Below are positions 37,801 through 50,512 of a DNA stretch of 64,000 nucleotides, piece by piece. The notes below the pieces were generated by a model, which was given only the letters and a program-made list of their open reading frames with translations, ran no database searches and was not told the DNA's origin. The stretch is taken from NCBI GenBank assembly GCA_964016885.1, contig OZ024740.1, forward strand, positions 292,640,001 to 292,704,000. The letters are read 5' to 3'. Positions within the stretch are counted from its first letter, which is position 1, and each line of letters begins with the position of its first letter. The stretch comes from Eledone cirrhosa (lineage: Eukaryota). A program made the position numbers and the translations under genes.

Positions 37801-37895
37801 AAGAAGGGTTAGAAAGAGAAAGTGTTTAGTAGTTTTAAACTATTTGCCATGATAATCCTGGAATTCTTTTTTTTTTGTTTTTCTTCAGCTAAACA

Positions 37896-38075
37896 ATGTT
37901 GAAGCAACTGAAAGCCTTTTTTAAGAATTACACAGTGGTAGCTATTATGATCCCATCAATAGTTGCCTTACATGCTGGTTGGTATCATTTGCAATTTGAT
38001 TCCACTTTTATTGAACCTGAGAGGCAGGAAATTCGATTATTTGGTAAAGTAATTAAGAAAGCCCCCAAAGAATAA
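37896..38075 (+). CDS. 59-aa single-TM microprotein, putative uMKKS1 homolog (exon 37889-38106)
   Basis: Long polypyrimidine tract + CAG acceptor, AAACAATG start, MLKQLKAFFKNYTVVAIMIPSIVALHAGWYHLQFDSTFIEPERQEIRLFGKVIKKAPKE*, then donor AAA|GTGAGT. Confidence 0.85.
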   Translation: MLKQLKAFFKNYTVVAIMIPSIVALHAGWYHLQFDSTFIEPERQEIRLFGKVIKKAPKE

Positions 38076-38212
38076 TATAGAAAACTCAAGTTACCAAAAT
38101 ATAAAAGTGAGTTCAGATTACTTTTATAAATATAAATTAAAAATATTGTTCATTTCTACTTTTCTTTTGTTTAATATAAGTAGTTTAGTTGACTGGCTAA
38201 TATCAGGTGTCA

Positions 38213-39198
38213 TCATTATTACCGTTTTACGTCCATTCTTCCACGCTAGCATGGGTTAGATGGGTTGTCTTGTTGTGGGCAATGCCAGGTCGGGTGACCT
38301 TGTCTTGCTCAGATGGGAACTGATTTTGGCTTGATTTCTACAGCTGGATGCCCTTCCTAACACCAACCTCATTTACAGTGAGTGCTGGGTGCTTTTTTTC
38401 CATGGCACCTGCACTGCCACTTTACAGTGTAGGCTGGGTGCTTTTTTGTCGTGACACCTCCATGACCACTTTGCAGTGGGAGGGGAGGGGGGCATATTGT
38501 CTATATGCTTCATGGGAAGTCTGGTCTTCTGTATTACTGCATGACGCTAGCGGTCATGATCCTGTGTCATCCCCTTTGAGAGATGCAATTGGGCAAGGTC
38601 AGCTTTTATCACCTCATTCCAGGTCTTCTTGAGTCTCTCCACTCCATGGCTTCCATCGACTTCTAGTGCTCTGCACCTTTTTATGCAGCTGTCATCCTTC
38701 ATACGCATCACATGTCCATACCAATACAACCTCCTCTCCTGCACACAGCATTTGATTCCTTTTATGCTCAGTCTCTCTCTCGATTCGTTTTTTATGCTTT
38801 GCCATTCACGTATATTACTATTACACATCCATCAGAGCATGCAAGCTTCATTTCTTTCTAATCTACACAAGTCTTCTACACACAGCGCCTAGGTCTCACT
38901 ACCATGTAACATTGCTGTTCGTATGCACGCATCATATAGTCTGCATTTCATTTTGAGGGAAAAAGCCTTTTGCAGCTAGCAGTAGTAGTAGCTCCCTGAA
39001 CTTCTTCCATCCCGTTCTTACCCTGGTAACTATGGTAACAATGTAAATGTGGTTGGTGTTAGGAAGGGCATCCGAAACCAAACCAGAATCAGTTGTATGA
39101 GCAAGACATGGTCATCTGATCTGGTTTGTCTCACAGCGGGACAACTCGTCTAACCCATGCTAGCATGGAAGAATGGACATTAAATGAGGATGATGATT
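38213..39198 (-). mobile_element. RTE 3' fragment with tail plus an adjacent opposite-strand tail
   Basis: MCNSNIREWQSIK...[26 protein letters not shown]; same subfamily as 27632-27865. Confidence 0.8.
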
Positions 39199-47395: not shown

Positions 47396-48711
47396 GTTAG
47401 ATTGACTCATTTATTAACCCTTTAGTTGCCAACCTGGCCACAACCAACCCTGGTTCTATGAAATAAATCACCCCTTTTCAAGGTTTACAATTTAAATTAA
47501 AATCTTCCAATATAATTCTATATAAGAACCTTACATAATGTTTCTATTTTTGTAATGAAATAATTAATAATTTTAGTAAATCCCTCAAATTTCTTTATTA
47601 ATTAATTGGAATAGTGTATGTCATTAGAAATATGGTCATGAAAGGGTTAAATTACTATTAAAAAAAGTTGGTCTGAAGAAAAGGGATGCACCATGATCCT
47701 AACAGGCCCCATTAACAAAGATGAGATTGATGCAGCCAATGGTAATCTTCAACTGCTGCATGGTGGTGATTGCAGGAAAAAAAGAACATTGGTAAGAAGG
47801 GACTTATTAGGCAAGGGGTGAGTGTAGTGCCTGGTGTTGGGAAATACACACTAGAAATACATAGAAAGAGGAGAAATGAATATGTTGGATGAGCTTGATT
47901 GGAGGAAGCAGATAACCTACTAGCTCTAAGAAGCAGAAGCTGTTGTAGCAACAGAACAAGGAAACAATGTAACTGTGTGCTAGAGGTTATAGTTTGTTGG
48001 TGAGGGACTATACATTAGCTTCTGTTAGTATTTTGGAAATAACATACATGATAGGCTAGGTTTAAGAAGCTGAGGTGGTGTGCAGGAGAGAAGACTGCAT
48101 TGGTACAGATGTGATGCGCATGGATGATGACAGATGGGGAAGAAGTGGCAGAAAATGCTATGGAAAGAGGTAGACCAAGAAAGACCTGGGTAGAGGTGAG
48201 AGCTGACCTCATATCACTGAGACTCACTGAGGGGATGATAAAGGATCACAGCTAGTGGAGAGATGCTGTGCTGATAGGGATCCGACCAAGCCATACAAGT
48301 GCGGAAAAATGGATGTAAAAACAATGATTATGATGATAGGTAAATCTCATAGAGATAATAATATAAAAATATTTTTAAGCAGTGGGTTAACAGAATTAGT
48401 AGAACATCAAACAAAATACCTTGTGGTATTTGGCTACATCTCTTTATTTCGAAGAAAGAATTATTGATTCTTGTAGAGCTATATATTCAAATTATGATAT
48501 TAATGTTTATAAATGAAATCAAAATATTTTATTAAGGTCAAATATATGCATTTCTTTAAATTCTTTCAGTTATGTGACACTATTAGATAATTCTTATCAA
48601 GTAGAATAAGTAGTTGTAAATCTGTTGGATGTCTTCAGGCAGAACTTAAATTGGGAGAAATATTTTATGTTTAATAAAGTGATGTATATTTATGTATTTC
48701 TAATTTCACAG

Positions 48712-48822
48712 GTGAATTGCAGCAATGTTATGTTAGCATTTCGGCAACTTCTCATGGCACCATCCATACTGTACGGTGGAGGCTGCTGGCAATTCACTTT
48801 AGCTAACAAGCTTAGAGTTGAG
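48712..48822 (+). CDS. MKKS: MKKS coding exon 3
   Basis: VNCSNVMLAFRQLLMAPSILYGGGCWQFTLANKLRVE with chaperonin GGG motif; CAG / GTAAA splice sites; 111 nt. Confidence 0.92.
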
Positions 48823-50041
48823 GTAAAATCTTTTTCTGTACTGACAACTTGGTTCAAATATTTTGTAATATTTTATATTCTTTATGCATCTCTTTACTGG
48901 ATGCAGCATAGCTGAATAGTGAAGAGATTCACTTTGCAATCATTAGGTCCCAGATTTAATGCCACTGCTTCACATCTTACCATAACCTTGGGTTGGCCCA
49001 TGCCTTGTGAGGAGAATTGAGTAGATGTAAATTGTTTGGAAACCAAGAGGATGGATTGTACCTGTAATTCAAAGAGCCAGCTTTGTCATACATTGGGATA
49101 AGTATGGATCCTGTTAATTTTCAGGAAAAAAAAGATAATTGAATAACATCAGTGGTACTCTTCCTATATAAAAAGCATAATGCTCTTTGTGGTTAGGGGT
49201 CAGAGGTGTTCCAGCCTCCCTAAGCTTCAGCATGATCTTGACACATTGTTGCCAATAGAGTAATCTCCCCTTTATACATGATGCAGTGTCAAGGGAAGCA
49301 ATTCATAAAGACTAAAATAACTTGAGCATCAGTCTGTGAAATAGAAAGACTCCCTTGCTTGAAACAAGCAGGTTTATTTTGCGTTTTGTCGATGTTATCA
49401 TAGCAAGAAATATTTTTTATGTAGCAGTGCTTCTAGTTCTGCACCCATCATCCAACCTGCAACAACAGCAACCTATTATATGTTTAACATAACTCAAGTA
49501 TTAATGTAAAAGTTAAGTTCATGTTAACATTAATACATGGAGCATTCAAAAAGCTGCCAAAAAATAGCTTTTGAAAAAAATATACACTATTAGTCTATGG
49601 CTAATATTTTTTTCAGGAAATATAGGGAACAATTCCAGAAATCTTTCAATCTTAGGAGTCCATTGGTAAATGAAACTTTTTCATTCACTAATATTGTTTT
49701 AGTTTGCCTTTTAATGCTCCATACATTAACCCTCTAGCATTTATATTACTATTATATTTTCACTGTAAAGGCTTTATCTCATAATTATCTCACATATATT
49801 GAATCTACGAGATTTTGACATTATTTATTTTGAGTACAATACCTTTACATGTGTAAGAGTGGCCAGTTATGGCCAGATACGGACGGTTTAAATGCTAAAG
49901 AGTTAAATATGCAAACAGAAACTTAACTATCATTTTTCAAGCAAATATCATCCCTGAATTATTTATTTTATTTACATAAAAGTTGTAAACGTTATGGTAA
50001 AACATTTTCTTTTCAGTTGAACTTTTTAAAATCTATTTCAG

Positions 50042-50512
50042 GTTTCTGAAAACTTAGAAAGACTCTGCAATAAACTAGATTGTTCTGAATCACAGTTGTT
50101 GCAGTTATGTGACTATTTATGTAGAAGTTTGGAACAAGCTGCTTCTCCACCTTCTCAACAGAGTAGAAAATGTTTTACACATCCTTCAGCTGGTCATCTT
50201 TGGATAGTAACTGACTATAAAGTAAATGGAGGAAACTTATGTTGTTCATGTGGTTTGTTATGTTCCAGTTTATCAGATTTAAAACTTCACCCTTTAGAAC
50301 ATACTCCATTTTTTGATAGATCTTTAATGAAAGGCCATGATGAATCTTATAAACCTGTTAATACTATGTCCAACTGTGAATCAAAGAAACCTCTTCTAAT
50401 GGACTGCTTTATTCCATGGAAAACTGCTTTAGAAACATCGTTATTAATAGCCAATATGGCTATTGGTACAAATCAGTTTATATATGACACTAATTGTAAA
50501 CCATTAAGATAG
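50042..50512 (+). CDS. MKKS: MKKS coding exon 4 (terminal)
   Basis: VSENLERLCNKLDCSESQLLQLCDYLCRSLEQ...GHLW...CCSCGL...LMDCFIPWKTALETSLLIANMAIGTNQFIYD...*; spliced CDS 1767 nt = 588 aa + stop. Confidence 0.92.
   Translation, partial: VSENLERLCNKLDCSESQLLQLCDYLCRSLEQAASPPSQQSRKCFTHPSAGHLWIVTDYKVNGGNLCCSCGLLCSSLSDLKLHPLEHTPFFDRSLMKGHDESYKPVNTMSNCESKKPLLMDCFIPWKTALETSLLIANMAIGTNQFIYDTNCKPLR

Follow-up and report, generated by a model that had tools for sequence, protein, structure and literature searches.

Two conserved microprotein exons upstream of an MKKS-like chaperonin gene in the mollusc Eledone cirrhosa: a probable counterpart of the vertebrate tricistronic MKKS locus

In a 64-kb stretch of the Eledone cirrhosa genome (contig OZ024740.1, positions 292,640,001 to 292,704,000; hereafter the window), a gene best assigned to MKKS/BBS6 is preceded on the same strand by two short predicted exons, E1 and E2, each of which holds one complete small open reading frame (ORF1 and ORF2, respectively). 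All window positions were read on the forward strand of the stretch, and exon arithmetic was done by hand; the features are collected in Table 1. At E1, a T-rich tract runs up to the CAG at 37888, and the donor reads AAA/GTGAGT. E2 is preceded by a CTAAT branch-like word and a pyrimidine tract, followed by CAG at 43663, and its donor reads CAG/GTTTGT. The acceptor of the main gene finishes at 45383, and its ATG at 45400 comes 16 nt after it. Since E1 opens with an acceptor and needs an upstream donor, one or more non-coding first exons are implied. An earlier note on this DNA, made from the letters alone, had proposed exactly this layout, with one cistron per exon and an MKKS-type exon at 45384 whose ATG sits just past the acceptor; the three acceptors, the two donors and the two small ORFs can each be read in the sequence where it placed them.

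The stop codon of ORF1 lies 31 nt upstream of the E1 donor and that of ORF2 3 nt upstream of the E2 donor; with both stops within 31 nt of donors, the message would fit a design that tolerates nonsense-mediated decay. On the spliced model, 43 nt separate the ORF1 stop from the ORF2 ATG and 19 nt separate the ORF2 stop from the MKKS ATG, and neither spacer contains an ATG. There are five ATGs upstream of the MKKS start (37896, 37947, 37972, 43676 and 43753), of which four have A at -3; the same holds for all three cistron starts. Each of the three ORFs has its own start and stop, ORF1 and ORF2 are under protein-level conservation, and ORF1, ORF2 and the first exon of the main gene each have one match in the 3.0-Gb genome. 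Judged from the sequence, both small ORFs are real genes. From 32362 to MKKS, the ORF list holds repeat-type frames and no further long gene, and no Rfam family reaches its gathering score in the 30-51 kb interval.

Table 1. Features of the Eledone cirrhosa window and of related metagenome contigs.
Feature	Position	Strand	Remarks
E1, predicted exon, cistron 1	37889..38106	+	218 nt; acceptor and donor read in sequence, splicing predicted
ORF1, 59 aa	37896..38075	+	within E1; microprotein, uMKKS1 / LOC128706665 / CG15922 family
E2, predicted exon, cistron 2	43664..43843	+	180 nt; acceptor and donor read in sequence, splicing predicted
ORF2, 54 aa	43676..43840	+	within E2; microprotein with gastropod-type homologues; a probable orthologue of uMKKS2
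MKKS-like coding exon 1	45384..46405	+	ATG 45400; 1006 coding nt, phase 1; Pfam match
MKKS-like coding exon 2	47217..47395	+	179 nt
MKKS-like coding exon 3	48712..48822	+	111 nt
MKKS-like coding exon 4, to stop codon	50042..50512	+	471 nt
ATTAAA hexamer in spacer before MKKS ATG	45392..45397	+	possible leader polyadenylation signal, weak lead
Further AGA-like exons	22440-22589, 20026-20133, 7465-7602, 3820-3921	-	
LINE-type reverse-transcriptase copies and mariner/Tc1-like transposase frame (presumed names)	51253-53337 (+), 10066-13325 (-), 61969-63597 (-), 1948-2883 (-)		
Peptide + J-domain unit	L003:18-1021; L005:1779-780 (-); L016:1061-76 (-)		mRNA-like contigs

The four coding exons of the main gene sum to 588 aa with compatible phases (hand count). 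Its product matches Pfam Cpn60_TCP1 (PF00118) at E 7e-33, yet reaches at best 38 bits against NCBIfam CCT and thermosome models whose cut-offs are 400-800, and it gives weak, even matches to many CCT and thermosome chains. Multi-exon chaperonin loci were found elsewhere, eight or nine in number, under inferred labels (C3, C4, C5, C6, C9 (two), C12, C19 and C21). In having four coding exons, the third of 111 nt, the gene resembles human MKKS, whose exon sizes we take to be 985, 176, 111 and 441 nt. The best assignment on these grounds is MKKS/BBS6, a chaperonin too divergent for any CCT subunit, in agreement with the type of gene that had been proposed downstream of the two ORFs. A second divergent chaperonin-like gene, intron-poor and with one 622-aa frame, lies at G000:C18:42170110-42171297 (L042:1024-2892, minus strand) and is probably BBS10 or BBS12.

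In human and mouse, MKKS is preceded by two upstream ORFs (uORFs), uMKKS1 of 63 aa (Q9HB66, LOC128706665, micro-MKKS63) and uMKKS2 of 50 aa (V9GZ13). A phmmer scan with ORF1 gave 21 matches at E<=0.001 among 1.84 billion representatives; 16 were retrieved and inspected, and the other five, all long, were left unopened. All 16 carry a hydrophobic helix ending in P-x5-H-x2-W-Y-x2-Q, and in their alignment H26, W29 and Y30 are invariant and P20 and Q33 nearly so. The predicted structure of ORF1 consists of a short N-terminal helix and a 21-residue hydrophobic helix (13-33), with a mean pLDDT of 81. The ORF1 profile recovers 15 of 189 candidates, including named proteins of Nucella lapillus, Aedes albopictus and Drosophila immigrans. 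Among Atlas neighbours, an arthropod-dominated cluster (0.94) is followed by two chordate clusters (0.93), one of which is named 'LOC128706665 homolog' (score 0.93, 204/256 features, recognition 3179; a lead-grade test). LOC128706665 has been described as an alternative protein in the MKKS 5' UTR with a predicted link to complex IV (10.1101/2024.10.01.615885). We conclude, from sequence comparison, that ORF1 belongs to a pan-bilaterian family of single-helix microproteins. As had been proposed, it is very probably the orthologue of vertebrate uMKKS1, the vertebrate link being strong but indirect.

Other searches with these peptides were silent. A Pfam scan recognised neither ORF1 nor ORF2, a word-based search with ORF1 alone gave no match, and the ORF1 profile found none among PDB sequences. 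Fold searches returned no Foldseek match and a best Z of 3.6, which is uninformative for a single helix. A motif scan of prokaryote genomes yielded six loci, all of them chance-like: five have in-frame stops, and none has a family-like N-terminus.

The evidence for ORF2 comes chiefly from gastropods. A 125-aa Nucella gene model (P0028) joins homologues of ORF1 and ORF2 into one fusion, in the order that they have here; its halves are each 44% identical to ORF1 and ORF2, with pairwise E of 2e-14 and 3e-14. A 60-aa protein (P0034) is 49% identical to ORF2 and, used as a query against the whole genome, finds ORF2 as its best match at E 6e-7, with the runner-up at E 0.9. P0034 and an ORF1 homologue, P0016, are 82% and 79% identical to the matching halves of P0028, and each is recorded, as a separate protein, on a single Logan contig that is 2385 nt long. 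From this equal length, the two probably share a single transcript contig, which would be about long enough for both peptides and MKKS. In the sequence searches made here, ORF2 homologues were seen solely in gastropod-type sequences, the one named homologue being that of the snail Nucella. ORF2 has a predicted N-terminal helix and a hydrophobic helix, and the 50-aa ORF of the mouse Mkks 5' UTR (a row of the PMC4568590 supplement) can be laid against it by eye without gaps, sharing W13, N17 and L31-G-T-Y34. ORF2 is listed here as a probable uMKKS2 orthologue, a reading drawn from sequence likeness; of what had been claimed for it, the conserved gene, its adjacency to ORF1 and the same order in a gastropod all stand, while the vertebrate match is one made by eye alone. 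We also considered ORF1 and ORF2 as tandem paralogues, given their topology and by-eye likeness, but the profile-profile probability is about 0.15% and no such claim is made.

Taken together, the most probable explanation, and one we hold with fair confidence, is that the Eledone locus is the orthologue of the vertebrate MKKS locus, expressed as one spliced tricistronic mRNA in an arrangement inherited from the protostome-deuterostome ancestor. The date follows from an arrangement shared by mollusc and mammals, in which the two peptides precede MKKS in a common order; the single mRNA is what we infer from the splice signals and orthology. One pre-mRNA would start between E1 and an aspartylglucosaminidase-like (AGA-like) gene on the other strand (ATG 32362), and would be spliced to join the non-coding first exon or exons, E1 with ORF1, E2 with ORF2 and the four MKKS exons, in that order. 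Scanning ribosomes would mostly start at ORF1 and produce an abundant single-pass mitochondrial membrane microprotein, the mitochondrial location being carried over from the human peptides. A fraction would reach ORF2, and fewer MKKS, by reinitiation or by leaky scanning past the five upstream ATGs. The peptides would then be the main products, with MKKS as a low-level passenger, as has been reported of the human locus.

Several observations weigh against this explanation. The joining of the exons is predicted from splice signals; one genome shows all three parts, and MKKS was not seen adjoining the gastropod peptides. The MKKS assignment is based on elimination and on the exon layout, and the link of ORF1 to vertebrates on the name of one Atlas cluster and the score from a language model; sequence searches with ORF1 and ORF2 returned no vertebrate sequence. 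The likeness of ORF2 to uMKKS2 amounts, by eye, to six identities in 22 gapless positions, the gastropod homologues have YIATI at the YLGTY of ORF2, and an Atlas search with ORF2 gave no relevant neighbour. Furthermore, a J-domain gene, not MKKS, directly follows the ORF1 homologue in three of the four true metagenome loci described below. The fly homologue CG15922 is annotated as a separate transcript of two exons and 344 nt (PMC4568590 supplement row).

The fly transcript bears on the possibility of an old gene order with independent transcripts: an ORF1-ORF2 mRNA, short in length, would end before MKKS, MKKS would start in the last leader intron, and the locus would represent conserved micro-synteny only. 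Five upstream ATGs and two ORFs of 54-59 codons make reinitiation inefficient. Polyadenylation signals are present in the human leader (PMC11837024). An ATTAAA hexamer is likewise located just 5' of the MKKS ATG and could, judging by its position, yield a short two-peptide isoform, with hexamers of this type being common in the window (257 on both strands). However, E2 has a donor 3 nt past the ORF2 stop, the acceptor of MKKS exon 1 needs an upstream exon, and the DNA immediately 5' of that acceptor belongs to a dispersed repeat of high copy number rather than to anything unique and promoter-like. Short and long isoforms may also coexist, which is compatible with a tricistronic message. We consider wholly separate transcripts unlikely. 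The repeat itself (45060-45345, about 40 nt before the acceptor) has 2985 first-look candidates, the best 40 of which are at 89-95% identity.

The first cistron does not have one fixed partner. Of 15 loci picked up when metagenome contigs were scanned for the motif, four are true homologues (profile E<=8e-17; next best 2e-6) and the remaining 11 are chance matches. In L003, L005 and L016 the peptide ends in a stop and is followed, after spacers of 56, 28 and 14 nt, respectively, by an uninterrupted J-domain ORF of 248-259 aa, which we take to be DNAJC4-like. Because the J-domain homologue in the E. cirrhosa genome has introns, these three contigs look like spliced mRNAs. The fourth locus, L008, is genomic-looking, and no partner gene was seen within 2.8 kb downstream. 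Two MKKS exon queries, both correctly framed, gave no tblastn match at E<=0.01 beside the metagenome peptides, in a set without a positive control. Since a leech gene model (Helobdella HELRODRAFT_162184) carries an ORF1-family peptide fused to a J domain, the sequences point to annelids as the owners of this pairing. The peptide + J-domain bicistron (L003, L005, L016; protein P0020) is apparently undescribed. On the opposite strand at L005:1-410, a further gene, which looks WD40-like by eye, overlaps the tail of the J-domain transcript with its 3' end.

The J-domain gene of this genome (C6, about 53.14-53.15 Mb) has no copy of the peptide within 60 kb, where the best match is at E 0.08 and on the wrong strand, and a genome-wide query with the L003 peptide finds ORF1 as its sole match. 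Hence, it looks as though the MKKS and J-domain pairings involve one and the same peptide gene. In insects, the D. immigrans protein P0033 matches the ORF1 profile at E 3e-8, and its motifs led, in the PMC4568590 supplement, to Drosophila melanogaster CG15922 (Q9VDL5, 67 aa), judged by eye. CG15922 and Aedes AAEL006255 (proteins P0033, P0021, P0035) are unrecognised insect homologues of a human MKKS uORF peptide. CG42568, also considered as the fly homologue, proved unrelated in sequence.

The fused models raise the question of whether splicing of E1 to E2 gives a single protein with two helices, or one fused to MKKS, as the NCBI model P0028 and the joined leech model would suggest. Here, ORF1 and ORF2 each reach a stop codon upstream of the donor of their own exon; P0016 and P0034, which are close relatives, are recorded as separate proteins; and the peptide of L003, L005 and L016 is set apart from the J-domain ATG by a stop codon and 14-56 nt of spacer. 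A fusion protein is highly improbable, and the Nucella and leech fusions look like gene-prediction artefacts.

The changes of partner, on the other hand, are demonstrated by the J-domain loci, the leech model and the free fly gene, and they lend something to the idea of convergence, in which a mobile ORF1 captured MKKS separately in vertebrates and in a mollusc, ORF2 is mollusc-only and the ancestral partner was a J-domain gene or none. The restriction of ORF2 homologues to gastropod-type sequences agrees with this, as does the report that human bicistrons usually formed after both of their proteins arose (PMC13303939). Nevertheless, one gene among thousands would have to be captured on two occasions, both times with a further peptide, alike in size and W/N/LGTY spacing, filling the same slot. 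Compared with a single origin followed by losses this is far less parsimonious, and we regard convergence as having little chance of being right.

Given that the first cistron is paired with MKKS in mammals and a mollusc, paired with a J-domain gene in annelid-type loci and free in flies, the most parsimonious reading, albeit from thin sampling, is a single origin after which the cistron was re-paired or released. ORF1, ORF2 and MKKS would have come together once in the bilaterian ancestor and been kept in vertebrates and molluscs, while cistron 1 was later paired with a J-domain gene in annelid-type lineages and became free-standing in flies. The core of what the earlier note put forward is supported by the ORF1 family, the ORF1-ORF2 order in Nucella and the MKKS-like gene; the splice junctions are predicted, and the vertebrate match of ORF2 is one made by eye. 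Its coupling of the peptides to a BBSome chaperonin needs qualifying, as the partner has been swapped elsewhere and the tie is not obligate. This coupling seems to be of long standing yet open to breakage, and a functional link between the peptides and MKKS does not follow from these data. More tentatively, and with considerable doubt, the ORF1 exon may be a portable 'driver' cistron, encoding a strongly translated mitochondrial microprotein, that has stood at the head of polycistronic mRNAs from the bilaterian ancestor onwards and, through its nascent sequence, keeps the output of a passenger chaperone gene low. In vertebrates and molluscs that passenger would be MKKS; in annelids it would be a J-domain co-chaperone whose N-terminus is of mitochondrial type.

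If the tricistronic explanation is true, the two peptides already had their place on the MKKS message before protostomes and deuterostomes parted, beyond the conservation across mammals given in a review (PMC11837024). This would run against the pattern that polycistronic layouts rarely persist over such distances (10.1101/2022.04.24.489283, PMC13303939). The driver-cistron view, if true, would make this the oldest traced three-cistron mRNA of animals and a natural partner-swap experiment on persistence, and the annelid-type J-domain pairing bears on whether such linkage is regulation or inherited happenstance. CG15922, being free-standing, is a tractable fly homologue that can be removed without affecting MKKS. 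The Nucella and Helobdella models illustrate how gene finders overlook or fuse such ORFs. In sum, the locus is most likely the molluscan counterpart of the tricistronic MKKS locus of human, and its interest lies in its age, the partner swap and the fly homologue.

Elsewhere in the window, the AGA-like gene (Asparaginase_2) starts with a signal-peptide-like exon on the minus strand (32249-32362) and diverges from the ORF1-ORF2-MKKS unit in a head-to-head arrangement. Going by its position, unique sequence at about 32400-32700 is a candidate for a promoter that serves both. The first intron of the AGA-like gene contains a near-perfect tandem array of 4.1 copies of 62 bp (31098-31349); an ORF near 30.2 kb, considered as uMKKS0-like, lies inside the same intron on the other strand and was dropped. 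A weak tRNA-like match at 42118-42175, below the gathering score, is probably the head of a tRNA-derived SINE. What we take to be LINE and mariner/Tc1-like elements are also present in the window, one of the LINE-type reverse-transcriptase copies having a 694-aa open frame.

The closest known system is the MKKS locus of human and mouse, which likewise has two short single-helix ORFs, of similar size and in the same order, before an MKKS-type chaperonin. In mammals, uMKKS2 shares an exon with the MKKS ATG; here, unlike in mammals, an intron lies between ORF2 and the MKKS start. The first uORF is uninterrupted in one small exon in both cases, of 218 nt here and 228 nt in the mouse transcript row, and the human uMKKS1 ORF is one contiguous 189-nt interval. 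CG15922 is of the same peptide family but differs from ORF1 in having an intron inside the ORF and an isoform without a second cistron. In human, both uORF products are mitochondrial (PMC7066179), and the uORFs repress MKKS, with peptides conserved across mammals (PMC11837024), a repression that is partly sequence-dependent (PMC7530721). Micro-MKKS63 has been reported to dominate over MKKS among the products of the locus and gave more than 1,000 spectra, versus none for MKKS, in a brain set; it is mitochondrial, its knockout lowers respiration, and it is needed for microglial respiration (PMC13577902).

Our literature search found no description of MKKS uORFs outside vertebrates, within a coverage that took in PMC7530721 short of its taxonomic-range figure and supplement; Lophotrochozoa are mentioned there once. 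The same search found no description of the peptide + J-domain pairing or of CG15922, the papers returned for the latter being methylation studies, and MKKS is never named in the main text of PMC13303939 (the search took in two of its 11 supplementary files). A fly-human survey reported no small ORF that is polycistronic in both species (10.1101/2022.04.24.489283), and STREMI-SLC35A4 is bicistronic in jawed vertebrates only (PMC13303939). In MIURF-MIEF1, PYURF-PIGY, ASDURF-ASNSD1, STREMI-SLC35A4 and fly sloth1-sloth2, a conserved and often mitochondrial microprotein comes first, with an unrelated protein downstream. The Eledone unit differs from such bicistrons in that it has three cistrons and apparently spans the protostome-deuterostome split.

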